Part shown: positions 1 to 55,552 of the stretch, one piece after another
Position numbering within the stretch: position 1 is the first letter of the stretch
Layout of the letters: every line of letters begins with the position of its first letter
Assembly (NCBI GenBank): GCA_963738405.1
Contig: CAVTWJ010000021.1
Location: forward strand, 1 to 64,000
DNA from: a candidate division FCPU426 bacterium
GTDB lineage: Bacteria; Oederibacteriota; Muellerivitia; Muellerivitales; Muellerivitaceae
Reading direction: 5' to 3'
Length of the DNA stretch: 64,000 nucleotides
The notes under the pieces: model-generated
Databases searched by the model: none
The model's input: only the letters and a program-made list of their open reading frames with translations
Told to the model about the DNA's origin: nothing
Program-made: the position numbers and the translations under genes

Positions 1-239
1 CTTTCATTTCGGCGTAATTTTCTTATCCCAGCCGTTCCAGGACGTTCCGATAGGCTTCGGGCGGGTCCGTCAGCACCAGATGAAGGTACTGGCCGGCTTC
101 AGCTCCCCAGGGAACGGACCACCAAGGGAATAGGGTCCAATTGCTTCACCGTCAAAGGCCGGATATCCAAAAAGTACCCGCAGGAGGGGTTCAGTTGCTC
201 CACCCAGGCGGGACGGGGGGTCAGGTCGTGCCTTTCCAT
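1..239 (-). pseudogene. DUF2249/TusA-like small protein; frameshifted and running off the window edge (possible sequencing errors)
   Basis: Manual translation from ATG at 239 gives MERHDLTPRPAWVEQLNPSCGYFLDIRPL..DPIPLVVRSLG, then continues in another frame as QYLHLVLTDPPEAYRNVLERLG. This matches the LDxR..P..L..L.PG pattern. Lies directly downstream of ric. Confidence 0.5.
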
Positions 240-261
240 CCGAAACCTCAAATCAGGCCGC

Positions 262-996
262 CTAAACCAAAAGGCCCATTTCCTTCAGCCGGTAAAACAA
301 AATGTTGTTTTCCAGGTGGATGTGCTTGTGCAGATCCTCTTCCAGTTCCTTCAAGCCCTGGTAAAGGGCCCGATAAGAGGCGCAGGCGTCCACCGGGGTG
401 GTGTAATCGCGGGTGAGGCGGTGGATTTCAAGCCATTCCTCGCCGGTCATTCCATGCTCCCAAACCAGCTGGTTGATCGGGTTTCCTGGAAGACTTCCTT
501 GGGGAATTGTTTCGCCTTAAGGTCCTTGTTTTGGCTCCTGTCCCAAAGCCGCCGAAGGTAGGGAAAAAGCACTTCCTCTTCCTTGGCCAAATGGCCTTCC
601 AACTCCTCCGCCATGGTTCCCAATAGCCCGTGCAAACGGATTAAATCGGGATAACGGCTGCCGTGCTCCCGGGAGACCTTTTCCGACAGTTTCAAAAGCT
701 TTTGAAGCTGGACCTTCGTGAAGGTGTGGTGGGTTTGGAGGATATGGTCGATGAGTTCGGGGATGCTCTTCTTGATCCAGGGGGTGGGGGCATCGGGATT
801 GGAGGGAGCATGGCTCAGAAGCCGTTCCAGCGATTGGACGACCCTTTCCACCGGAATGCCCGCCGCGGCGCAGGCGTCGTCCAGGGAACGCTGTCCGTTA
901 CAGCAATAATCGATCTTGAGGTCCTCAAAGAGGGGAATGGCGGCTTGAATTTTGTGAGGCGATGTCCCTCACCGCCCGTTCGGGGCTGACTTTCAT
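262..996 (-). CDS. ric: Iron-sulfur cluster repair di-iron protein (Ric/YtfE/ScdA), split by frameshifts near 945-965 and 480
   Basis: Joining frames gives MKVSPE..IDYCCNGQRSLDDACAAAG..HHTF..HLAKEEEVLFP..EH..DACASYRALYQGLKELEEDLHKHIHLENNILF. GGGGAG RBS precedes ATG at 996. Confidence 0.9.
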
Positions 997-1055
997 AATG
1001 ACTCCCCGGCAGGCTTGCCCGCCGAATTTTGAAGGCTTTGTTGCATTTGCCGTTC

Positions 1056-1097
1056 AGATTAGGAGTTTCACCGCTGAACCTTCATGACTCAAATCAT
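1056..1097 (-). promoter_or_regulatory. Crp/Fnr-type box plus -10 element upstream of ric
   Basis: ATGATTTGAGTCAT (1097-1084), 22-nt spacer, TAATCT (1061-1056). Confidence 0.7.
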
Positions 1098-1784
1098 AAC
1101 GGGGCCATTTCCCCCAAGTTCCCGCTCTTTTTTCAAAACCTCCTCAAAGTCATCCCCGAGTTTGCAGACGAGGGTTAAATCCCGCCCTTGAAAGTTCAAG
1201 GACACCTGGGCGGCGTGGAGCATGAGCCGGGGCGCCCCGCCCACCGGACGATCCTTGCCGTAAAGGGGGTCGCCCATCACCGGGCAACCCAGATGGTACA
1301 GGTGAACCCGAATCTGGTGCCTTCGTCCGGTCTCCGGTTTCACTTCCAAAAGGGAGGACCTGGAAAAGGTTTGAAGGACCCGGTAGCGGGTCAGGCTGGC
1401 TTTTCCCTTCGGGTCCACCCCCATTCGCCCGGAGCCGAACGCCTTGAGGGAAAATTCGATACGGCCTTCGTCTTGGGCAAGGGTCCCCCAAACCAGGGCC
1501 CTATAAATTTTCAGCACTTCCCGGTTTTCCCATTGCTGGCAGATTTCACGGTGGGTAGGCGCGTCCTTGGCGAAGAGAACCAGCCCGCTGGTTTCCCGGT
1601 CCAGCCGGTGGACCACATAGGCCTTTTTCCCGATTTTTTTTGAGACTGTCTCCACCAGGGGCGGGATTTCGTCCCCGAGGTTTCGGCCAGGGATCACCGC
1701 CTGCCCCGCGGGCTTATCGACCACGACGAGCCATTCATTTTCAAAAAGAATATTTACCTGAGGGGGAGTGGAGGGGGAAACCAT
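1089..1784 (-). CDS. RluA-family RNA pseudouridine synthase
   Basis: Motifs VDKPAG, VHRLDRETSG, TGRRHQIRVHL, GDPLYG, LMLHA. ATG at 1784 is more plausible than 1967. Confidence 0.92.
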   Translation of the reverse strand: MVSPSTPPQVNILFENEWLVVVDKPAGQAVIPGRNLGDEIPPLVETVSKKIGKKAYVVHRLDRETSGLVLFAKDAPTHREICQQWENREVLKIYRALVWGTLAQDEGRIEFSLKAFGSGRMGVDPKGKASLTRYRVLQTFSRSSLLEVKPETGRRHQIRVHLYHLGCPVMGDPLYGKDRPVGGAPRLMLHAAQVSLNFQGRDLTLVCKLGDDFEEVLKKERELGGNGPVMI

Positions 1785-1850
1785 GAAGGCATTAAACCCG
1801 ATGGGGAGCGTTCCCTTCCATCTTTTTGAATCGAAGGAACCCTTTAACTT

Positions 1851-1892
1851 ATGAGCCTTGTCATAAACCCTATGTTCTCCCAGGGTTAAATT
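1851..1892 (+). promoter_or_regulatory. Crp/Fnr-type box plus -10 element upstream of the radical SAM gene
   Basis: ATGAGCCTTGTCAT (1851-1864), 22-nt spacer, TAAATT (1887-1892). Confidence 0.7.
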
Positions 1893-1935
1893 CGGGTGGA
1901 AATTCGCGGACGGCCATTTCCGAGGGGAGATCAGG

Positions 1936-3039
1936 ATGAATATCGAAACCATGGGTTCCAACACCAAACCGAATCACCGTTATTCGGAACGGCCTTTCAT
2001 CGCCATTTGGGAAGCCACCCGGGCCTGCGACCTGGCCTGCGTGCATTGCCGGGCACAGGCCGAATCCAAGCCCTACCCCGGCGAATTGGACACGGCCCAG
2101 GCCCTGGATTTGATCCGCCAGGTCTCGGAATGGAAAGTTCCCCTTTTCGTCATCACCGGAGGCGACCCCCTGAAAAGGGAGGACCTTCCCCGGCTCATCG
2201 GGGAATGCGCGAGCCGCGAAATGACCTTCGCCCTCGCCCCCTCCGTGACGCCCCTCCTCACCTTGGAAAGGCTGAAAGAATTAAAAGAGGCGGGCCTCAA
2301 CCGGGTTTCCATTTCGCTCGATGGGGCGGACCCGCAAACCCACGACACCTTCCGGGGCACTCCCGGAACCTTCGCGCGCTGTTTGGAAACCATGCACTGG
2401 CTGAAAGATTTGGGAATCAAACTTCAGGTCAACACCACCGTTTTCCGCCATAACCGAAACCAAATCGCCGAGATCGCCCATGTCTTGAGGGAATTCGCCA
2501 TTGAGCGCTGGTCCGTCTTTTTCCTGGTCCCCACGGGCCGGGCGGATAAAAGCCAGGCCTTGAACGCCGCGGAAACCGAAGAGGCTCTCAACCAGCTTTA
2601 CGTGATATTAAAGGAAGGCTGGTTCGACATTAAAACCACCGAAGCCCACCACTTCCGCCGGATCATTTTGCAAAGGTCCAATGTCAAACCGGAAAACCTG
2701 GAGGCGGCCATGCGCCAGGGCGTAAGCCCCGGGTTGATCCGCGCCTCCTTAGGCGTCAATGACGGCAGGGGGTTTGTCTTCATTTCCCATACGGGGGATG
2801 TCTGCCCCAGCGGGTTTCTGCCCATTCCGGGCGGCAACGTGAAAAGCGAGCCCCTGGCGGACATCTATCGGGAAAACGGGATGTTTCAAATGCTGAGGGA
2901 TTCGGACGCCTTGAAGGGAAAATGCGGGCGCTGCGAGTACCGCTACCATTGCGGGGGTTCCAGGGCCAGGGCCTTTGCCCTGACCGGGGATATCATGGCC
3001 GCGGACCCCTTTTGTTCCTACCAGCCCCAGCCGGTTTAA
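1936..3039 (+). CDS. Radical SAM/SPASM protein (TIGR04053-like, NirJ/AhbD-related)
   Basis: WEATRACDLACVHCRA (CxxxCxxC), TGGDPL, GVNDGRGFVFISHTG, C-terminal CGRCEYRYHCGGSRARA..DPFC. Confidence 0.88.
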   Translation: MNIETMGSNTKPNHRYSERPFIAIWEATRACDLACVHCRAQAESKPYPGELDTAQALDLIRQVSEWKVPLFVITGGDPLKREDLPRLIGECASREMTFALAPSVTPLLTLERLKELKEAGLNRVSISLDGADPQTHDTFRGTPGTFARCLETMHWLKDLGIKLQVNTTVFRHNRNQIAEIAHVLREFAIERWSVFFLVPTGRADKSQALNAAETEEALNQLYVILKEGWFDIKTTEAHHFRRIILQRSNVKPENLEAAMRQGVSPGLIRASLGVNDGRGFVFISHTGDVCPSGFLPIPGGNVKSEPLADIYRENGMFQMLRDSDALKGKCGRCEYRYHCGGSRARAFALTGDIMAADPFCSYQPQPV

Positions 3040-3094
3040 AAAGCCCCAAGCCAACATTCAAAAAGTGTTCTTCCCCGCCGAGCCTTGCCACAAA

Positions 3095-3206
3095 ATAAAA
3101 AACCCCAGGTAGGGGAGCCACCCGGGGTTATAGAGGCGGTTCTTTTCTTCATTCCGGGTTTGACCCCGTTGACACCTCTCGGTGCCGATTCAAGAACCAC
3201 CTACCG
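3095..3206 (-). ncRNA. Putative structured small RNA (~110 nt) with intrinsic terminator
   Basis: AGGUGGUUCUU/AAGAACCGCCU closing stem encloses GGCACC-GAGA-GGUGUC and CGGG..CCCG hairpins, followed by hairpin AACCCCGGGUGG-CUCCC-CUACCUGGGGUU and a U-run. It has its own promoter. Confidence 0.6.
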
Positions 3207-3212
3207 ATTGTG

Positions 3213-3254
3213 AATATAAGGCTCCCCCCGGTTTCGAAACATGACGTAAATCAG
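3213..3254 (-). promoter_or_regulatory. Crp/Fnr-type box plus -10 element upstream of the putative sRNA
   Basis: CTGATTTACGTCAT (3254-3241), 22-nt spacer, TATATT (3218-3213). Confidence 0.65.
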
Positions 3255-3297
3255 TCTTGCGTTTTTTATTTACCAGAAAAAAGGCCCAACCTTATTG

Positions 3298-3474
3298 TCA
3301 CTCACTTTTTGTTTTCAGTTCTTTTTCCGCCGCCAGCCAATCGATTTGGGGATCATCATGGGGGCAGCCCCGTTCCAGCCATTTGTAATAGGCAAGCGTT
3401 TCGATGGCTTCCTGGGTGACGCCCTTAGGGGATGAAGCGTCGGGGCTTCCGGTTTCTTTCTTTTTGCGCGGCAT
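3298..3474 (-). CDS. DUF2934-family small protein (58 aa, absent from the ORF track)
   Basis: MPRKKKETGSPDASSPKGVTQEAIETLAYYKWLERGCPHDDPQIDWLAAEKEL matches the I..LAY..W..RG.P.....DW..AE motif. GGAG RBS. Confidence 0.85.
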   Translation of the reverse strand: MPRKKKETGSPDASSPKGVTQEAIETLAYYKWLERGCPHDDPQIDWLAAEKELKTKSE

Positions 3475-3620
3475 AGGGTTTCTCCTTTTCTCCCCTCATT
3501 ATACCCGGCGTCAATTTATCTTCACCTTTGCGCCCCCCTTATGACCGGCATCAGGAAGGGGTTCCCCTTTTTAAAGAACCCTCCTTGAAATCCAAGGGCT
3601 TCCTTCCCATTCATTCAAAA

Positions 3621-4688
3621 ATGAAAACTACCCATCCCATTCCCTCGTTTCTGATGTCGGACTCTTCCCTTTCGGAGGGAACGGCCTCCCCCCCGCCCTA
3701 TGACAATGAGGGATTGCTGGACGCCTATTCCAGCGCGGTTATTTACGCCAGCGAGAAGGTCAGTCCCTCGGTCGTCAATATTGACGTCTTTCGAAAGGGC
3801 GGACGGTGGGGCCGTTCCGGGAATTCGCTTCAAAAGGCGGGAAGCGGGTCCGGTTTCTTTTTCACCCCCGACGGCTTCATCCTCACCAACAGCCACGTGG
3901 TCCACGGGGCTCAAGAGATGGAAGTCACCCTTTTGGACGGTCAGACCCACAAGACCCGTTTGATCGGGGAAGACCCGGATTCGGACCTGGCGGTGATCCG
4001 CGTGGACGCCTCGGGCTTCAAGCCCGCAATGCTTGCCGATTCCCGGGCCCTTCGCGCGGGCCAGTTGGTGGTGGCCATCGGCAGTCCCCTGGGGTTCCAG
4101 ACCACCGTCACCGCGGGGGTGGTATCCGCACTCGGCCGGTCCCTGAGGTCCCAATCGGGCCGGCTCATCGACAATGTCATCCAAACCGACGCGGCCTTGA
4201 ACCCCGGAAACTCCGGCGGGCCCCTGGTTAATTCCCGGGGAGAGGTGGTGGGGGTTAATACCGCCACCATCCCCTCCGCCCAGGGGCTCTGCTTTGCCAT
4301 CGCCATCGGAACCGCCCAAAGGGTCGCCATGCAGTTGATGAAAGACGGCAGGGTCCACCGGGGCTATATCGGAATCGGCGGGCAGAATATCGACCTGCCC
4401 CGAAACATTGTCCGTCATTACGGCCTAACGGCGGAAAAGGGCGTGCTCATTGTCGCGGTGGAGGAAAACAGCCCGGCCCAGAGGGCGCTTCTAAAAGAAG
4501 GCGACGTGCTCGTCGAGTTCGAGGGACACCCGGTGGAGGGTATGGATGACCTGCACCGTTTGCTGACGGAAGAACCCCTCGGAGAGATCCGCTCCCTATC
4601 CCTCATCCGAAAAACGGTCCGGCTCGACTTAAAAATTATCCCCATCGAATTTCCTAAGGCTTTATCCGGGGCTTCGGACCCTTCCTAA
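3621..4688 (+). CDS. HtrA/DegP-like trypsin serine protease with one PDZ domain
   Basis: Catalytic triad motifs [22 protein letters not shown]-terminal PDZ. Start uncertain. Confidence 0.92.
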
Positions 4689-4730
4689 CCTGGTTTCAAG
4701 GGTTCCCAAGGGCTGTGTTAAACTAGGCCC

Positions 4731-5429
4731 ATGTTTATTTGCGCCACAAATTCCCCTTCTTTCGGGAACCTTTTCCCCCTTCCTTGGTCAAACCTATTAA
4801 CGATCAGGGGTTGGTTTTCCCTTTTCTCCGTTTCCCTGGCCCCCAAAAGCCCTCAAAACCAGGAGGATCAGCGGCTCATTCAAGAGGCCCTTTCAGGTGA
4901 TGGAGGTTTTGAGAAGCTCGTGAGAAATTTTGAGCAGATGGTCTACCGGGTGGCCTTCCGCTATTTAAACCACGAGGCGGACGCCTGCGATGTCGCCCAG
5001 GAGGTTTTCTTAAGGGTCCACCGGGCCCTTCCCAATTTCAGGGGCGAAAGCTCTTTAAAGACCTGGATCTACGCCATCACCGCCAACATGTCCCGCAATG
5101 TTTTGCGGTCCCGCAAGGCCAGGGCCAAGGTTCAGGTTTTGGTCACGGAAGATAAGGAAGACAAGGGCCCTGGCTTGTTGGAAAGGGCGGAGGACTTGAA
5201 AAGCCCGGGGGCCCTGCGCAGCGCCGAAAGCGCCGAATTAAACCGCGCCATCCAAAAGGCCCTGCAAACCCTGCCCCCGGAATATAAGGAAGCGGTTGTT
5301 TTAAGGGACCTGGAAGGTTTGGAATATGAACAAATCGCGAAGGTTTTGAAGACTGGGGAAGGCACGGTGAAATCCCGCATTTCCCGGGGCCGGGCCCTGT
5401 TACGGGAAGCCCTGAAGGATTGGTTATGA
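4731..5429 (+). CDS. ECF RNA polymerase sigma factor (start uncertain)
   Basis: Region 2 DVAQEVFL..FRGESSLKTWIYAI; region 4 LPPEYKEAVVLRDLEGLEYEQIA..GTVKSRISRGR. Confidence 0.93.
   Translation: MFICATNSPSFGNLFPLPWSNLLTIRGWFSLFSVSLAPKSPQNQEDQRLIQEALSGDGGFEKLVRNFEQMVYRVAFRYLNHEADACDVAQEVFLRVHRALPNFRGESSLKTWIYAITANMSRNVLRSRKARAKVQVLVTEDKEDKGPGLLERAEDLKSPGALRSAESAELNRAIQKALQTLPPEYKEAVVLRDLEGLEYEQIAKVLKTGEGTVKSRISRGRALLREALKDWL
4765..4792 (+). promoter_or_regulatory. Candidate ECF-sigma promoter (autoregulatory)
   Basis: GGAAC-N17-GTCAAA at the 5' end of the ECF sigma ORF. Confidence 0.5.
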
Positions 5430-22184: not shown

Positions 22185-22212
22185 AAAAAAGGCCTGATTT
22201 TTGTCAGGCCTT
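22185..22212 (-). terminator. Intrinsic terminator after livK
   Basis: AAGGCCTGA..TCAGGCCTT with a T-run on the minus strand. Confidence 0.7.
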
Positions 22213-22241
22213 CGAGAGTTCCAATTGTTTGGAAAGTGCGG

Positions 22242-23370
22242 TTAGGGATTGACGGTTGAGACGAATACTTCCTTCCCGCCGGAAATTTTTAAAACCACAG
22301 CCGGCTTCACGGCGTTGCGGTCGGCGTCGATGCTGATGGTACCCGTGATGCCCTCGTAATTTTTAATGGATGCCAGCGCGTCTCGTAAATCAGGGCCGCT
22401 CAGGCTCTTGGCGCTCTTCAAGGCCTGGGCCAAGACCCCCGCCGCGTCATAGGCCAGGGTGGCCAGGGCGTCGGGCACATGCCCCCACTTGGCCTGGTAC
22501 TTCTTTACATAGGCCTGCACCTTGGGGTCGGTGGATTGGGCCGTGAAATGATCCGAATGGTAGCAGCCCTCCAAGGCCTTGCCCCCGATCTCAAAAAGTT
22601 TGGGGGAATCCCATCCGTCCCCGCCCAGAAGCGGCTGCTTCAAGCCCAGTTCCCGGGCCTGCTGGGCGATGAGCCCCACTTCGGTGTAATAGCCCGGCAC
22701 AAAAATCACGTCCGGCTTCACGCCCCGCATGGCGGTCAGCTGGGATTTGAAATCAATGTCGCCCTGTACATAACTTTGATCCGAAACAATGGTTCCGCCC
22801 CGTGCCTTGAAGCGGGCGATGAAAAAGTCCGCCAAGCCCATGCTGTAATCGCTCTTCTGGTCGCGAAAGATGGCGGCGGTCTTGGCCTTGAGCTTATCGG
22901 TCGCGAAATCAGCCATGACCTGGCCCTGGAAGGGGTCGATAAAGCAGACCCGGAAAATATAATCCCCCACCTGGGTGACCTTGGGGTTGGTGGAAGAGGG
23001 CGAGATCATGGGGATCTTGTTGGTCTGGCAGATGGGCGCCGCCGCCAGCGAAAGCGGAGCTGGCCACTTCCCCCACGATGACCTGGGAGGCATCCTCGGT
23101 TAAAAGCTTGGTCACGGCTACCGCCGCTTCCTCGGGCTTCCCCTGATCGTCCAGGGTGGTCACCACCAGCTGTTTGCCGTTGATGCCGCCCGCAGCGTTG
23201 ATTTCGGAGACCGCAAGCATCAGCCCCTCGTGGTTGGATTGGCCGAAAGTGCCCTGGGCCCCGGTCAAGGCGGCGTATTCGCCGATTCTTATTTCGTTGG
23301 GATTTAGCTTGGGGCCGCAGGAAGCGGTCAAGAGGGCCGTCGTAATCAACAAGAGAAATAAGGATCGCAT
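22242..23370 (-). CDS. livK: Branched-chain amino acid ABC substrate-binding lipoprotein (LivK/LivJ), one frameshift near 23057
   Basis: Lipobox LTASC; INAAGGING..DDQGKPEEA..GEVASS joins, after removing one base, to LSLAAAPI..FRVCFIDPFQG..GGDGWDS. Confidence 0.88.
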
Positions 23371-26299: not shown

Positions 26300-28303
26300 A
26301 TGTCATCCACGGAACGTTTCAATCTGGTTCAAAAAATCATTCAAAACCACCTGGTATCGGGAAAACCCGTCGCGGGTGAGGAAATCGGAATCCGCATCGA
26401 CCAAACCCTCACCCAGGACGCCACGGGAACGATGGCCTACCTGCAGTTTGAGGCCATCGGCATCCCCACGGTCCAAACCAAGCTCTCCGTCTCCTATGTG
26501 GATCACAATATGCTCCAGACCGGTTTTGAAAACGCCGACGACCACCGATACCTGCAATCCGTGGCTTCCAAGCACGGCATTTACTTTTCCCGGCCCGGCA
26601 ACGGCATCTGCCACCAGGTCCATCTTGAAAGGTTCGCCATACCGGGGCAGACCCTCTTAGGTTCCGACTCCCATACCCCCACTTGCGGCGGGCTTGGGGA
26701 GCTTTCCATCGGGGCGGGCGGATTGGACGTGGCGGTCGCCATGGGCGGGGGCCCCTTTTACATGACCATGCCCAAGGTCTTGCGTGTGGAACTAAAGGGC
26801 AAATTAAAGCCCTGGACCACCGCTAAGGACATCATTCTTGAGGTTTTGCGGCGTTTAACAGTTAAGGGCGGGGTAGGCAAGATATTGGAATATTCCGGAC
26901 AAGGGGTGAAGAGCCTTTCCGCGACTGAGCGGGCCACCATTACCAACATGGGGGCCGAACTGGGCGCCACTACCTCGGTTTTCCCGTCGGATGAGAATAC
27001 CCGTGAATATATGAAGGCGCAGGGCCGAGGCAAGGACTGGACCCCCTTAACCGCCGACCCGGGGGCGGGTTATGACGAGGAACTGATCATCGACCTAAAC
27101 AAGCTGGAGCCCCTTATGGCCCAGCCCCACAGCCCGGATAACGTGATTGAGGTTTCCAAGCTGAAGAATGTGGACGTGAATCAGGTTTGCGTTGGGTCTT
27201 GCACCAATAGTTCCTATAGGGACCTCATGGCCGTAGCTAAGATGCTCAAGGGCAAGCATATCCACCCCAACGTCTCCATGACCGTCACCCCCGGCTCCAA
27301 GCAGGTCTTTGAGATGATCGCCAAGAACGGGGCCCTGGCCGACATCATTGCCTCCGGCGCCCGCATTATCGAGTCCGCCTGCGGACCCTGCATCGGCATG
27401 GGCCAGGCTCCCCCCTCGGGCGGGGTGTCGATCCGCAGTTTCAACCGCAACTTCGAGGGCCGTTCCGGAACCCGGGACGCCAAGGTGTACCTGGCCTCGC
27501 CAGAAACCTGCGTGGCCTGCGCCCTGACCGGCAAGATCACCGACCCCAATACTTTGGGCAAGGCCCCCAAGGTCGAGGTGCCCGACAAGTTCACCTGGGA
27601 CGACGACGGCATCATCGCCCCCTCCAAAGACCCTAAGAAGGTCGAGGTCACCCGCGGTCCCAACATTAAGCCATTGCCGGTCAAGGAACCCTTGGCCGAA
27701 ACCCTGGAAGGTGTTCTTTTGCTCAAGGTTGGGGACAACATCACCACCGACCACATCATGCCCGCCGGGTCAAAGGTGCTTCCCTTCCGGTCCAATATCC
27801 CGAAAATTTCCGAGTTCGTTTTCGAAGGCGTGGACCCCACCTTCTCCAAGCGCGCCAAGGAAGCGGGGGGCGGTTTTGTGGTAGGCGGAGACAACTACGG
27901 ACAGGGTTCCTCGCGCGAGCACGCCGCCCTGGCGCCCATGTTCCTGGGGGTCAAAGCCGTGATCGCCAAGAGTTTTGCTCGCATCCATCGGGCCAACCTG
28001 ATCAACTTCGGCATCCTGCCCCTCACCTTCGTGATGCCTACCGATTACGACACCCTGGAAGCCGGCCATCAGCTTTCCATCCCCGACTTGACGCAGGTCA
28101 TGCGGGCCGAACACCCCTTCCCGTTGAAGGACATCACCACCGGAAAGTCCATCCAGGTCATTCACGGCCTGACCGAACGCCAGAAGGAAATCATTTTGGC
28201 GGGCGGGCTCTTGAACCACACCAAGCAGGTCAGCGCCGCGGAAAAAGAGAAGTCCGCGAAGGTTTCAAAAACGCCCAAGGGCGCCAAGGCAAAAAAGAAA
28301 TAA
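26300..28303 (+). CDS. Aconitate hydratase (short Aquifex-type)
   Basis: DQTLTQDATGT, GSDSHT, GSCTNSS, CGPCIGMG, FNRNFEGR, TTDHI, GSSREHAA. Confidence 0.9.
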   Translation: MSSTERFNLVQKIIQNHLVSGKPVAGEEIGIRIDQTLTQDATGTMAYLQFEAIGIPTVQTKLSVSYVDHNMLQTGFENADDHRYLQSVASKHGIYFSRPGNGICHQVHLERFAIPGQTLLGSDSHTPTCGGLGELSIGAGGLDVAVAMGGGPFYMTMPKVLRVELKGKLKPWTTAKDIILEVLRRLTVKGGVGKILEYSGQGVKSLSATERATITNMGAELGATTSVFPSDENTREYMKAQGRGKDWTPLTADPGAGYDEELIIDLNKLEPLMAQPHSPDNVIEVSKLKNVDVNQVCVGSCTNSSYRDLMAVAKMLKGKHIHPNVSMTVTPGSKQVFEMIAKNGALADIIASGARIIESACGPCIGMGQAPPSGGVSIRSFNRNFEGRSGTRDAKVYLASPETCVACALTGKITDPNTLGKAPKVEVPDKFTWDDDGIIAPSKDPKKVEVTRGPNIKPLPVKEPLAETLEGVLLLKVGDNITTDHIMPAGSKVLPFRSNIPKISEFVFEGVDPTFSKRAKEAGGGFVVGGDNYGQGSSREHAALAPMFLGVKAVIAKSFARIHRANLINFGILPLTFVMPTDYDTLEAGHQLSIPDLTQVMRAEHPFPLKDITTGKSIQVIHGLTERQKEIILAGGLLNHTKQVSAAEKEKSAKVSKTPKGAKAKKK

Positions 28304-30994: not shown

Positions 30995-31027
30995 TTGCAT
31001 TTAGCGTAATATTGAGTTAATTTACGC
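30995..31027 (+). promoter_or_regulatory. TA operon promoter with overlapping inverted-repeat operator
   Basis: TTGCAT-N17-TAATTT overlapped by GCGTAA-N12-TTACGC. Confidence 0.65.
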
Positions 31028-31046
31028 AAAGAGCTAAGGAGTTAAT

Positions 31047-31313
31047 ATGCCCAATATCAAATCCATTTCCAGTTTGAGAAACCACGCCCGGGAAATTTCC
31101 GCCCTCTGCCACAAGGAGGATGCCCCCGTTTTTTTAACCACTAATGGGGAAAGTGACTTGGTGGTTATGAGCATGAGCCACTACGATAAATTGCGCGCCC
31201 AACTGGATCTTTTCGAGAAACTCGCGGTGGCCCAGTCCCAATCCGTCGGCGGCAAAAAGGGCGTCACTCACGCGCAAATGATGCAAACCCTAAAACAACG
31301 GATCCATGCCTAA
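31047..31313 (+). CDS. Phd/YefM-family antitoxin
   Basis: MPNIKSISSLRN..EIS.LCH....PVFLT.NG..DLVVMS. Confidence 0.9.
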   Translation: MPNIKSISSLRNHAREISALCHKEDAPVFLTTNGESDLVVMSMSHYDKLRAQLDLFEKLAVAQSQSVGGKKGVTHAQMMQTLKQRIHA

Positions 31314-31611
31314 TAAATTTGAAATCCGCTATCTCCCCGCCGCCCAGAGTGATTTGATTTCCATTCTGGATTGGATCGCCCAGGATAGCCCTCCCCGAGC
31401 CTTGTCCTTCCTCGGAACCATCGACAAAAAAATCGGAAATCTTTCGCTCCATCCCCAAATGGGCTTAATTCCCAAAAACGAAAAATTGCGAGAACTCGGA
31501 TATCACGTTTTGGTCATACAGGATTATCTGGTTTTTTACATCATCCACGCGCAAACTGTCGTTATCCAGCGGGTACTGCATGGATCACGAGACTATACGG
31601 ACATCCTGTGA
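31306..31611 (+). CDS. RelE/ParE-family toxin
   Basis: AQSDL..I.DWIA.DSP..A..L..HP.MG..YLVFY..V.IQRVLHGSRD. Confidence 0.9.
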   Translation: MPNKFEIRYLPAAQSDLISILDWIAQDSPPRALSFLGTIDKKIGNLSLHPQMGLIPKNEKLRELGYHVLVIQDYLVFYIIHAQTVVIQRVLHGSRDYTDIL

Positions 31612-38612: not shown

Positions 38613-39548
38613 ATGTCCACACAACGTCCAAAAATAACGGTGGTAGGCGCGGGTAACGTCGGGGCTTCCTGCGCGGCCTGGATGGCCGAGAGGGACCTGG
38701 GCGACATCGTGCTGTTGGATATCCCCGCCGCCAAGGATATGCCCAAGGGAAAGGCCCTGGACCTCTTACAAGTGGGCCCTATCTCGGGATACAACTCAAG
38801 ACTCAAGGGCACCACGGACTACGCCGACACCGCCGATTCGGATGTCTGCGTCATCACCGCGGGCGTGCCCCGCAAGCCCGGCATGAGCCGGGAAGACCTG
38901 GTGGCGGTCAACCAGGGCATCGTGACGGCCGTGACGAAGGAATTGGTTTCCAAATCCCCCAACGCCATTTTGATCGTTGTCACCAACCCGCTCGATACCA
39001 TGTGCTACGTGGCCTACAAGGCTTCGGGATTTCCCAAGCACCGGGTCATCGGCCAGGCGGGGGTACTGGACGGGGCCCGCATGCGGACCTTTTTGGCCGA
39101 AGCGGCCCAGGTCGCGGTTGAGAACGTCACCGCCGGGGTCATCGGCGGCCATGGAGACGAGATGGTGCCGCTGGTTCGCTATTCCACCATCGCGGGAGTG
39201 CCTATTTCCAACATTCTCAAGAAAGAACAAATTGAAGCGATTGTGGAACGCACCCGCAAGGGCGGGGGCGAGTTGGTGGGGCTGTTGGGCGTTTCAGCCT
39301 GGTATGCGCCCGGCGCTGCGGCCGGCTCCATGGTCGAGGCCATTTTGAAAGACAAGAAATTGGTGGTTCCCTGTTCCGTTTATTTGGAAGGCGAATACGG
39401 TCTGAAAGACATGTACTTCGGCGTTTACAGCAAGCTCGGACGCAAGGGGTTGGAACAGGTGCTCGAAGTTCCCTTGAACGACGAGGAAAAAGCCATGGTG
39501 GCGAAATCCGCTTCCCTCATTCAGGACACCATGAAGGCGCTTAAATAA
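38613..39548 (+). CDS. mdh: Malate dehydrogenase (LDH-like)
   Basis: [37 protein letters not shown]. Confidence 0.95.
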
Positions 39549-45065: not shown

Positions 45066-46364
45066 TCAGGCTTGGGCGTCGGGGAGATGCCGGAAGTCTT
45101 CGGCACGAAGATTATACTTTCGCATCTTGCGCTGAAGGGTCTTGAGGCTCAGGCCCGACAAACAAGCCGCGTCCTGGAGTTTTCCCTTGGTTTTGGCAAG
45201 GGCGTCCACCAGATAGCCCCGCTCGGTGGTGTCCAGAAGCTGATCGAGCTTTTCACCGGAGGGCGAGACGATTCCTACGTCGAGCTTGGCGATTTGAGGG
45301 CCCGTGGCCATCAAACAGGCCCTTTCAATATGAATTTCCAGCTCCCTTAAGTTTCCCGGCCAGGGGTAGGTCATCAATTGGGAAAGGGCCTCCGGGCTCA
45401 GCTTTTCGGCCGGGGAGCCCGTCACCACCCGGAAGGTTTCGATGAAATGCTGGGCCAGAAAAGGAAGGTCCTGGGGGCGCTCCCTGAGGGAAGGCAATCG
45501 CAGGGTGCGGGAAGCGAACCGGTTGAAAAGATCCAGCCGGATGATTTCCTGGTGGACCAGCTGGTCGATATCTTGCCTTGTGGCCGCCACGACCCGTGGT
45601 TCGTTCTTCCCCGCCGTCTTAGCCAAAACGGACGCCAGTTTTTTCTGGCTGGCTTCACCCAGGCCGCAGATCTCATCCAGATAGAGGGTTCCCCCGGCGG
45701 CCTTTTCCCAGGCTCCGCCGGGTCCGAAAAGCCCGGCCGCGCAATCACCCTCCTGATTGTCCACGCAATGGAAGACATGAAAAGGGGCTTCGGCCCGGCG
45801 GGACCTTTGGTGAAGTGCGCGGGCGAATGATTTTTTTCCCGTGCCTTTTTCCCCCTGCAGCAGCACCGGCCAGCCGTCGTCGGCCCAATGGGACATCTGC
45901 TCAAACACCAGCTGGAACCGCTTATCCCGGCTGCTGATGGTTCCGGCGTTTTGGGGAAGGGGCGCGCCCTTGGTTAGCTCCGTGATATCCTTCACCACTT
46001 CCACGACATAATCGACCGATTTGTGGGACGCGTTCCAAAGGGGATAGATGGAAACCTGGAAATCCCGATTGGCCCCCTGTTCCCCCAGGGTGGCGTATCC
46101 TAGGTGGGGTTGTCCGGTCTCGAAAACCATTTTGGCTTTGCAGAAAAAACATTTTTCAGCGAAACCGTAGAAAGCCTGGTGGCAGGGAAGGCCGCGCAAT
46201 TCGTCGAGCTTTTTCCCCAGGTTCTGGCTGGAGGTCTGGTTGACGAAGACCAGTCGGAACTGCCGGTCGATAATTTTCACCGACTGGGGCAATCCGTCCA
46301 AGACTTCCCTGAGAAAGGGAGCCTTGGTATAGAGGGCGGGAGGCCGGTAACGGCGGGGGCTCAA
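45066..46364 (-). CDS. PAS + AAA+ + Fis-HTH regulator (NtrC-like, lacking GAFTGA)
   Basis: PAS domain; GEKGTGK; GTLYLDEI; WPGNLREL; C-terminal HTH. Confidence 0.85.
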   Translation of the reverse strand: MSPRRYRPPALYTKAPFLREVLDGLPQSVKIIDRQFRLVFVNQTSSQNLGKKLDELRGLPCHQAFYGFAEKCFFCKAKMVFETGQPHLGYATLGEQGANRDFQVSIYPLWNASHKSVDYVVEVVKDITELTKGAPLPQNAGTISSRDKRFQLVFEQMSHWADDGWPVLLQGEKGTGKKSFARALHQRSRRAEAPFHVFHCVDNQEGDCAAGLFGPGGAWEKAAGGTLYLDEICGLGEASQKKLASVLAKTAGKNEPRVVAATRQDIDQLVHQEIIRLDLFNRFASRTLRLPSLRERPQDLPFLAQHFIETFRVVTGSPAEKLSPEALSQLMTYPWPGNLRELEIHIERACLMATGPQIAKLDVGIVSPSGEKLDQLLDTTERGYLVDALAKTKGKLQDAACLSGLSLKTLQRKMRKYNLRAEDFRHLPDAQA

Positions 46365-46405: not shown

Positions 46406-47074
46406 TTAGTTTTTGGAGAGGCTAGGGGGAAGGGGCGCGGTTTCTGTTTTCTCAGGGACGCCCGAGGAAATGTAGTGCTTGAACCGCTTCTTCATTTCCA
46501 GCAGATCCTTGCGGATGGCCGAAAGCTTGTCCGCCAATTCCTGCTCCTCGCCGAAAACCTCGATCGCCTTTTCCAGAAGCTTCAGCGACTCCTGCTGAAG
46601 GGAAACTTCTTTTTGAATGAGCGATTGGAAGGATCCCGTTTCCACCTGCTCGGCAAGATGCCCCGTGACGGTCAGGGTCACCGGGATTCCCGTCAAATCG
46701 TAAAGGGTCTTCACGATGGCCTGGTAGTGCTTCTGCGCCGAGGCCAAGAGCTGCCAAAGGGCGCTGACCGAATTCTCGTCATCCTGGCCCACCGTGGCGG
46801 TGGCGGTGGAAAGAACCATCAAACGGCGATAAAAGAGGTCCAAAACCTGGAAGAGGATGGCGGCCTTGCGGAGGGTGATCTTGCTGATGTGGGTCTTGTT
46901 ATTGAGGAGCACCTTCACTTCATTGACCTTCAACTCGCACTGCTCCAGCAATTCCCGGTTGGCGCGGGCGTCCCTGGGGCTGATGCGAAGGGCCCGGCTG
47001 GCTAAGTGCTGAACATTACGGCCTAAAGACTCTACCGTCTCAATAAGCTGAAAAAGCGAAAAATAAAAGTTCAT
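46406..47074 (-). CDS. Hypothetical helical protein, possibly a degenerate ferritin-like fold
   Basis: GGGGAG RBS; KHYQAI..LYDLTGIP and the following helices resemble ferritin-like bundles. Confidence 0.55.
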   Translation of the reverse strand: MNFYFSLFQLIETVESLGRNVQHLASRALRISPRDARANRELLEQCELKVNEVKVLLNNKTHISKITLRKAAILFQVLDLFYRRLMVLSTATATVGQDDENSVSALWQLLASAQKHYQAIVKTLYDLTGIPVTLTVTGHLAEQVETGSFQSLIQKEVSLQQESLKLLEKAIEVFGEEQELADKLSAIRKDLLEMKKRFKHYISSGVPEKTETAPLPPSLSKN

Positions 47075-47411
47075 GATCGGCTCCCCTATTCTTTCGACCT
47101 TACTTGGGTGGGCTTGGAAAGGCTTATTTAGTAGGTCAAAAGATTCTTTAGATGAAGTATAGCGACTGTACCTATAAGGTTACACAAATAATCGTCGGGA
47201 CAATGTAAATTGTTAAAATATAAGGGTAATCGAAGCATTTAAGGTTTAGCGAAAAATAAACAGATTCTCAAAAAAGGTCATAATTGTCTCTTATGTGTCA
47301 AAATTTACACTTAATTAACAAGCTTTATACCCAAGTTGCCTAGCTTCCTTTGGGCTGTTTTAGCGAAACTTTGGACCACCAGTTCAATCCACCATCACGG
47401 AGAGGTGTTGC

Positions 47412-55024: not shown

Positions 55025-55552
55025 TCAGCCCGCAACCTCTTTCAAGAGTGCCAAAATCTTGCCTTCGCCATCTCGGTTCGAAACCCTGTCGAATACAAAC
55101 ATAAAAACTGTAAAGAGAGTCAGTATCAACTCGAAAATTGAATATGGAACCCACTCAATCGTTTGGTGACTCAACCCTGGCAATTGAAGAAAGCTTTTTG
55201 CCAATACAAACAGAAAAAGTCCTAACGCAATAAAAGCTAGTAACCAAATGGGGAAAGCGGGTCCAGGCAAACATCCATAAATGCGGCTTCCTTTACCCCG
55301 GTTTTCGATCTTACCCCGAATGGTTATTTTCCCTGCCCCACGAGAGAAAAGTGAAGAAAGTGGGGTAAAAGATATTTTGAAACTTCCGTTTTCCACATTC
55401 CCAACGAGTTTCTCGTAATAGGGCAGTAAATGGAACGTCGGCTCTTTGATGATTCGACTCGACAATTCATGCTCGATTTTTTCTGGAGAATCGGAACTGT
55501 TTATTTCAAAGGGCCGCCATAAAAATATTTTGATTCGTGTCAAAAAAGGCAT
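55025..55552 (-). CDS. AT-rich hypothetical membrane protein
   Basis: GAGG RBS; two TM helices; lower GC than the flanks. Confidence 0.6.
   Translation of the reverse strand: MPFLTRIKIFLWRPFEINSSDSPEKIEHELSSRIIKEPTFHLLPYYEKLVGNVENGSFKISFTPLSSLFSRGAGKITIRGKIENRGKGSRIYGCLPGPAFPIWLLAFIALGLFLFVLAKSFLQLPGLSHQTIEWVPYSIFELILTLFTVFMFVFDRVSNRDGEGKILALLKEVAG

Follow-up and report, generated by a model that had tools for sequence, protein, structure and literature searches.

C-rich hairpin loops, which sometimes belong to a terminator, serve as anti-Shine-Dalgarno (anti-SD) seeds in the UCCC-loop small RNAs of Staphylococcus aureus, namely the RNAIII hairpins and the Rsa RNAs. FnrS of enterobacteria acts through a single-stranded 5' region, and class II activation by FNR or CRP is characterized by a dyad centered at -41.5. 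In those passages of a review that concern it, FnrS is placed in the regulon of an FNR-family activator and described as repressing mRNAs (PMC8139620). RoxS and RsaE of Bacillus and Staphylococcus, as portrayed in parts of PMC4409812, are induced together with a nitric oxide (NO)-responsive regulon, and their C-rich unpaired regions block G-rich SDs. On the side of the regulators, two motifs have been published for HcpR, wTGTGAnnnnnnTCACAw and TTGACnnnnGTCAA, and the regulon passages of the same paper list dnrN (RIC) as a core gene of NO-responsive regulons (Rodionov et al., 2005; PMC1274295). Since small RNAs are usually discovered by RNA-seq, they are almost unknown in uncultured lineages. 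Here, a small-RNA gene could be called from sequence alone, owing to a regular promoter that it has in common with its neighbors and to its recurrence in a relative.

The window, that is, the whole stretch of 64,000 nucleotides (64 kb) that was analyzed, contains the following elements on its minus strand.

3254..3241, minus strand: Crp/Fnr-type box CTGATTTACGTCAT, centered at about -41.5; 12 of 14 positions are identical to the small-RNA box CTGACTTCCGTCAT of the relative's locus, L001
3218..3213, minus strand: -10 hexamer TATATT, 22 nt past the box, with the same hexamer and spacing in L001
3206..3095, minus strand: predicted small-RNA transcript of ~112 nt, its 5' end placed by promoter geometry and its 3' end by the U-tract
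3134..3202, minus strand: 5' three-way-junction domain, the most stable part (z = -5.29 when folded alone)
3202-3192 with 3144-3134, minus strand: helix P1, the 11-bp closing stem
3186-3181 with 3176-3171, minus strand: helix P2, 6 bp with a GAGA loop
3168-3165 with 3158-3155, minus strand: helix P3, 4 bp with the loop GUCAAA
3101..3129, minus strand: intrinsic terminator hairpin, 12 bp with the loop CUCCC, -20.1 kcal/mol
3117..3111, minus strand: CUCCCCU tract, made up of the loop CUCCC and two stem bases, within GCUCCCCUACC
3092..3102, minus strand: tail U6-A-U4, following the terminator hairpin

The best overall explanation, to which we assign a probability of roughly 0.6, is an independent, non-coding small-RNA gene of ~110 nt that is linked to a regulon and would act by pairing through its C-rich loop. 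An undescribed, Crp/Fnr-regulated small RNA had been proposed in a preliminary description of this DNA, and the promoters shared with the neighboring genes, together with the homologue in L001, make a separate gene with a Crp/Fnr-type class II promoter the most likely reading. The box, the 22-nt gap, TATATT and a start near 3206 were also part of that proposal, and sequence and geometry agree with it: a 14-bp dyad lying 22 nt ahead of the -10 hexamer has its center at -41.5, which gives a predicted start at ~3206. The promoter matches the class II dyad type TTGAT-N4-ATCAA/TGAC-N4-GTCA, and, counted from the predicted start, it has the class II spacing, with the dyad at -41.5, 22 nt to the -10 hexamer and a weak or absent -35 element. 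A -35 hexamer is in fact absent, and a sigma-70 scan for -35/-10 pairs gave no match at this promoter, as is expected of a class II activator-dependent promoter.

No gene lies downstream on the minus strand, as was noted earlier, and the next one is the convergent radical-SAM ORF on the plus strand, which ends at 3039. The layout is therefore not that of a riboswitch or cis-acting leader, with no same-strand gene 3' of the small RNA and the radical-SAM gene convergent to it. The ORFs that overlap the small RNA extend beyond its terminator, and none of them is common to L001; a spurious 54-aa ORF across it had no match in a protein database search. A second copy of the small RNA was not found within the 64-kb window.

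The promoter is one of a set. Within 2.5 kb, the small RNA is accompanied by three protein-coding genes with promoters of the same build.

262..996, minus strand: ric (iron-sulfur repair di-iron protein), profile match, read in three frames
1097..1056, minus strand: ric promoter, ATGATTTGAGTCAT, 22 nt, TAATCT (pattern match)
1851..1892, plus strand: radical-SAM promoter, ATGAGCCTTGTCAT, 22 nt, TAAATT (pattern match)
1936..3039, plus strand: TIGR04053 radical SAM/SPASM gene, 449.7 bits (cut-off 395), convergent with the small RNA
3254..3213, minus strand: small-RNA promoter, CTGATTTACGTCAT, 22 nt, TATATT (pattern match)
3298..3474, minus strand: DUF2934 gene, 58 aa, Pfam match
3554..3513, minus strand: DUF2934 promoter, CTGATGCCGGTCAT, 22 nt, TAAATT (pattern match)

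A strict composite pattern (TGAT-N4-GTCAT, 22 nt, TAnnnT) has three matches in the window against 0.00 expected, and a relaxed one (TGA-N5-GTCA, 23 nt, TAnnnT) has four against 0.03 expected, a number that none of 100 shuffles reached. All four matches are intergenic and fall between 1056 and 3554, and the distance from box to -10 hexamer is exactly 22 nt at each of them. As the four 22-nt spacers are unrelated in sequence, the promoters are not duplications of one another. Three of the six TGAT-N4-GTCA cores in the window were set aside. The core at 22195(+) belongs to a terminator-like hairpin, that at 38971(+) lies within mdh, and that at 55531(+) lacks a -10 hexamer at the 22-nt distance. 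A fifth box core, at 28088(+), falls inside the aconitase gene and is without a -10 hexamer, and a composite match with one mismatch at 31059..31019(-), which overlaps the phd start codon, was taken as chance. Counts of boxes with one mismatch (26 against 7.1 expected) were not used, because the shuffles ignore codon bias.

Some features of these and other genes in the window deserve a record of their own. In ric, the ATG at 996 opens a frame of 23 codons, the ScdA_N/hemerythrin part follows in a second frame to 447, and the C-terminal part is read in a third (450..262); either the gene is decaying or the assembly contains frameshifts. The branched-chain amino-acid binding protein ORF at 22242..23093 (-) matches only positions 107-346 of a 370-position profile; it apparently lacks the N-terminus, perhaps because of another frameshift. 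The inverted repeat GGCCTGAtttttgTCAGGCC at 22186..22215 (+) resembles a terminator hairpin, its match to the box core being fortuitous, and a Phd/YefM-ParE toxin-antitoxin pair is encoded at 31047..31611 (+).

The predicted RNA is strongly structured. The 121 nt at 3210..3090 (-) have a minimum free energy (MFE) of -53.9 kcal/mol (z = -4.26), and none of 200 shuffles was as stable. Every element of the fold given in the preliminary description was recovered, i.e., the 11-bp closing stem with one U:G pair, the 6-bp hairpin capped by GAGA, the 4-bp hairpin and the terminator. The last of these is an intrinsic terminator, with 12 pairs (7 of them G-C) followed by TTTTATTTTG, and it is the strongest of five terminator-like sites between 2600 and 3900. 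An Rfam scan of the whole window yielded no family at the gathering score, and a relaxed scan of 2950..3350 yielded nine matches with E <= 10, among which neither RsaE nor FnrS was found; the best of them, His_leader (E = 0.24), aligned to little beyond the terminator. The Infernal/Rfam comparison suggested earlier thus matched the RNA to no known family, as befits an undescribed RNA.

A homologue of the small RNA was found in one relative. An alignment-based scan for radical-SAM loci gave at least 80 loci, 79 of them distant (45-52% identity) and one, L001, from the same clade; when only the radical-SAM protein was used for a locus scan, no relative was recovered. Closer radical-SAM relatives exist as proteins (P0001, P0002, P0006 and P0007, at 96, 82, 77 and 76% identity, respectively). 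L001, a MAG contig of 7.6 kb, encodes a radical-SAM protein with 67% identity to that of the window and carries five boxes, before the radical-SAM, RIC, NMO-like and P-type ATPase genes and before the homologous RNA.

L001, radical-SAM promoter: ATGACTTAGGTCAT, 22 nt, TAAGTT
L001, RIC promoter: CTGATTTCCGTCAT, 22 nt, TATAAA
L001 5338..5223, minus strand: homologous RNA, with CTGACTTCCGTCAT, 22 nt, TATATT, then ~108 nt ending in CCCCGGAUAGCUCCCCUACCGGGG-U7-AUUUU

The 22-nt spacing recurs at five L001 sites (radical-SAM gene, the opposite strand of the same palindromic box, small RNA, RIC and NMO), and the P-type ATPase box has no -10 hexamer at 22 nt. The remainder of this island, all on the minus strand, consists of NMO-like (2..457), RIC (980..1735), DedA/VTT protein (1822..2679) and P-type cation ATPase (2454..4973) genes.

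The homology rests on a covariance model whose only input was the window sequence with its centroid structure and which was searched against 1.22 Mb (the window plus 80 loci). It matched the L001 RNA with 39.4 bits (E = 1.1e-7), and the next matches (E >= 0.42) appear to be other terminators, not homologues. Folded alone, the L001 RNA forms the same four helices despite its diverged sequence (z = -3.57): a 13-bp closing stem with a bulge, a 7-bp hairpin with the loop UUU, a 6-bp hairpin with the loop UUCAUC, and the terminator with the loop CUCCC. In the model-fitted alignment of the two sequences, 63 of 63 cells pair, three pairs having changed on both sides and seven on one side, and when the partners were slid by 1-3 columns as a control, pairing fell to 39-57%. 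A shuffle control, which is weak with two sequences and an alignment fitted to the model, reached the observed covariation in 65 of 500 shuffles. An alignment by sequence only (MAFFT with RNAalifold) misaligned the 5' domain of the two RNAs and was replaced by the model-guided one. At the level of plain sequence, the two RNAs are similar only over the last 36 nt (89%), which contain the invariant GCUCCCCUACC and the U-tail. The structural conservation that had been named as a check was thus found in one relative, L001, where the box, the -10 hexamer, the four helices and the C-rich loop are all kept.

Across this comparison, conservation of unpaired sequence between the window and L001 is limited to the terminator loop CUCCC(CU). 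A tract that is both conserved and unpaired is a plausible seed, although it may instead have been conserved for termination or for the binding of a protein. The loop in the window comprises 5 nt atop a 12-bp stem, which limits access to it; in L001, the upper terminator stem has 3 bp over a bulge, and the C-rich tract is more exposed there.

What this loop might recognize is less distinct: the unit of promoter, fold and terminator exceeds chance, but the anti-SD complementarity does not clearly do so. CUCCCCU is the exact complement of AGGGGAG, which occurs 14 times in the window including the complement of the small RNA itself (13 others). The occurrences reported earlier are indeed present: AGGGGAG precedes the radical-SAM gene, icd and mtnD, and lies ~37 nt ahead of aconitase. 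Among 44 start regions picked by hand from an automatic list, GGGGAG is found in 10 and AGGGGAG in 6, compared with 0.9% and 0.2% of random 25-nt windows, and every GGGAG in these regions is part of GGGGAG. Two SD flavors can be distinguished, as 10 starts carry (A)GGGGAG(G) and most of the remaining recognizable ones have AGGAG/GGAGG; the 3' end of 16S rRNA was not found within the window. With GGGGAG a common SD flavor, complementarity to icd, mtnD and others is unspecific, and the caution voiced in the preliminary description, that AGGGGAG may be the usual SD sequence of this genome, was largely right, given GGGGAG at 10 of the 44 starts. GGGGAG stands before all three protein-coding members of the island (ric, radical-SAM and DUF2934) and before 7 of the 41 other genes, a post hoc comparison of small numbers.

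Duplex energies point in the same direction. The whole RNA paired with the 44 start regions no better than a shuffled RNA did (median -30.2 against -28.6). When the seed alone was used, four of the 44 regions fell below the 5th percentile of the background, and the strongest energies were those of hyp222 (-23.4 kcal/mol) and ric (-19.9 kcal/mol). As for the pairing with the ric ribosome-binding site (RBS) that had been suggested before, this site reads GGGGAGUCA and has the second-best calculated seed duplex (-19.9). The proposed repression of TCA genes through icd, mtnD and aconitase found no support, since GGGGAG is general and, in the seed-only ranking, icd and mtnD lie mid-table, as does the radical-SAM gene, and aconitase ranks low. 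The first-ranked gene is as follows.

46406..47074, minus strand: hyp222, a 222-aa protein with no family match and the top seed-duplex energy

Its RBS (47075..47090, minus strand) contains UAGGGGAGCC, which complements the loop region of the small RNA perfectly over 10 nt. The hyp222 gene is preceded by an AT-rich intergenic region of ~340 nt and followed by a PAS/sigma-54 activator gene (45066..46364). In L001, the SDs are GAGGAG (radical-SAM) and AGGGAGG (RIC) rather than GGGGAG, and the putative targets are not conserved there.

This lack of specificity in target complementarity is one reason to consider that function resides in the structured 5' domain, which would bind a protein, sense a ligand or act as a sponge, and that the loop is kept only for termination or for a chaperone, with no anti-SD role. 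The domain is indeed the most stable part of the RNA, and its architecture is kept in L001. A binding pocket, however, should preserve its junction and loop sequences, and these are entirely different in the two members (GAGA and GUCAAA in the window, UUU and UUCAUC in L001), with the terminator loop as the single invariant unpaired stretch and no Rfam aptamer match. On this evidence, we regard a purely 5'-domain function as unlikely.

Less probable still is that the small RNA represents nothing more than the DUF2934 3' UTR and terminator, or a terminator shared with the convergent radical-SAM gene. The 50 nt past the DUF2934 stop codon show no fold (3305..3256, MFE -3.5, z = +1.46) and no terminator-like site, which means that the DUF2934 mRNA probably ends at the small-RNA terminator; judging from this arrangement, the small RNA probably doubles as the 3' end of that mRNA. 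In this respect, the window has the layout of a 3'-UTR small RNA, with DUF2934 lacking a terminator and the small RNA having its own promoter. The small RNA nevertheless has its own box and -10 hexamer, in the same geometry as the three neighboring promoters, and a 70-nt three-way junction is unnecessary for termination. Moreover, no DUF2934 gene was found in the L001 locus, where the homologue keeps its promoter and is divergent from the radical-SAM gene (convergent in the window); the small RNA is therefore not merely a DUF2934 3' UTR, and the shared-terminator layout is local rather than a trait of the family. As for the radical-SAM gene, the hairpin does lie 62 to 90 nt past its stop codon on the other strand, but when read on the plus strand it is followed by UUAUAGAGG, a poor U-tail.

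The convergent arrangement also allows a cis-antisense reading, in which the transcripts of two co-induced genes overlap at the terminator and modulate each other at the radical-SAM 3' end. The same box precedes both genes, only 56 nt separate the radical-SAM stop codon from the small-RNA end, and the plus strand has no good terminator tail. Yet the RNA is conserved in L001, where its divergence from the radical-SAM gene makes an overlap impossible, which renders this explanation very improbable. The least probable of all is that promoter-like and terminator-like sequences have come together by chance and are not transcribed jointly. The -10 hexamers do match weakly and the sigma-70 scan found no -35/-10 pairs, but a class II activator-dependent promoter is expected to lack a -35 hexamer, the composite pattern occurs far above expectation, and L001 has the same promoter and fold at E = 1e-7.

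The regulatory context can be approached through the wider set of loci. In the 80 loci listed, the composite pattern has 39 matches in 1.16 Mb, and in 11 of these 39, from Acidobacteriota and Bacilli, a RIC-type N-terminus (D[YF]CC[GNS]G) starts <= 330 nt downstream. The TIGR04053 radical-SAM gene is also often accompanied by RIC in these two groups. No Crp/Fnr gene was found in the 64-kb window or in L001. A regulator scan of 142 ORFs of 170-300 aa, taken from 13 of the 28 pattern-bearing loci, detected a protein with cNMP_binding and HTH_Crp_2 domains in 12 of the 13 (L012, L021, L033, L043, L047, L048, L058, L059, L060, L066, L074 and L078), mostly adjoining the radical-SAM gene. The box of the window most resembles, in sequence, those of the HcpR/DNR branch. 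As RIC is a member of NO-responsive regulons according to the regulon passages of PMC1274295, nitrosative stress is favored over plain anoxia; by this analogy, the genes of the island near the small RNA are probably nitric-oxide-stress genes, and NO or nitrosative stress, rather than anoxia alone, is the better guess for the inducer. A full-text literature search found no paper naming TIGR04053. The association of this uncharacterized family with RIC and Crp/Fnr proteins in several phyla gives it a testable nitrosative-stress or low-oxygen context.

A second, unrelated candidate small RNA was seen in three of the 80 loci listed, all from Terriglobia (L012 7896..7725, L048 7883..7712 and L059 3470..3302, all on the minus strand). 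It has the same box type, 22 nt and TATCTT, is divergent from the radical-SAM gene, and comprises a conserved hairpin, GCGUUC[UGCCCC]GAACGC, and a 13-bp terminal hairpin that is not followed by a U-tail. No Rfam family matches it.

Returning to the small RNA as an independent gene, we infer from the sequence its transcription, inducing signal, seed, targets and direction of regulation. A Crp/Fnr-family protein would bind the 14-bp box at -41.5 and activate transcription of the small RNA, along with that of ric, the TIGR04053 radical-SAM gene and DUF2934. The small RNA would thus appear alongside the response to nitrosative stress or low oxygen. Its three-way-junction 5' domain would most likely be a scaffold, and the most likely mode of action would be pairing in trans of the C-rich terminator loop with RBSs of the GGGGAG type, by which translation would be lowered. 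The small RNA, its seed and its promoter are concrete objects that can be tested in a heterologous host.

It is tempting to go further and propose that the island of radical-SAM, RIC and Crp/Fnr genes is a cross-phylum nitrosative-stress module that has repeatedly recruited small RNAs with C-rich loops, as might be illustrated by the CUCCCC-loop RNA described here and the unrelated GCGUUC[UGCCCC]GAACGC RNA in three Terriglobia loci. Taken jointly with a feed-forward role based on GGGGAG, this proposal is speculative and, in our estimation, rather doubtful. If it were true, the loop would pick out a GGGGAG subclass of SDs that includes ric, radical-SAM and DUF2934 of its own regulon, and an incoherent feed-forward loop would delay or cap the translation of these three genes.

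The comparison with described systems reveals both likenesses and differences. Like RoxS and RsaE, as characterized in parts of PMC4409812, the small RNA is ~100 nt long and has an intrinsic terminator and a C-rich unpaired region, with NO induction and SD pairing being putative here. RoxS differs in being controlled by the two-component systems ResDE/SrrAB through a site near -65, rather than by a Crp/Fnr-type dyad at -41.5, and in having four C-rich regions (CRR1-4), compared with the single CUCCC here, where the other loops are GAGA and GUCAAA (same passages of PMC4409812). In addition, RsaE and RoxS have no Rfam match to the small RNA and belong to an unrelated lineage. The likeness to the UCCC-loop RNAs of Staphylococcus aureus, drawn in part from PMC4409812, is one of analogy only, with no sequence relationship. 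Small RNAs of the 3'-UTR type, which share the terminator of an upstream mRNA in the same regulon, are comparable by way of DUF2934; in contrast to them, the window RNA is served by a separate promoter downstream of the DUF2934 stop codon and stands alone in L001. With respect to the regulon, the box core TGAC/T-N4-GTCA resembles the HcpR/DNR motif TTGACnnnnGTCAA, and RIC (dnrN) is a member in both cases, but the boxes differ at their flanks (A/C...T here against T...A) in the motif passages of PMC1274295. The term 'radical SAM' is absent from the text of that paper, and its regulon passages do not list a small RNA. FnrS has a different fold, with no Rfam match at E <= 10, yet the small RNA is similarly placed directly in a predicted FNR-family regulon, its repression of mRNAs being putative (compare the FnrS passages of PMC8139620). 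On the strength of these sequence comparisons, the small RNA probably represents a new family with two members, in the window and in L001, and probably belongs to the same kind of regulator as FnrS and RoxS.
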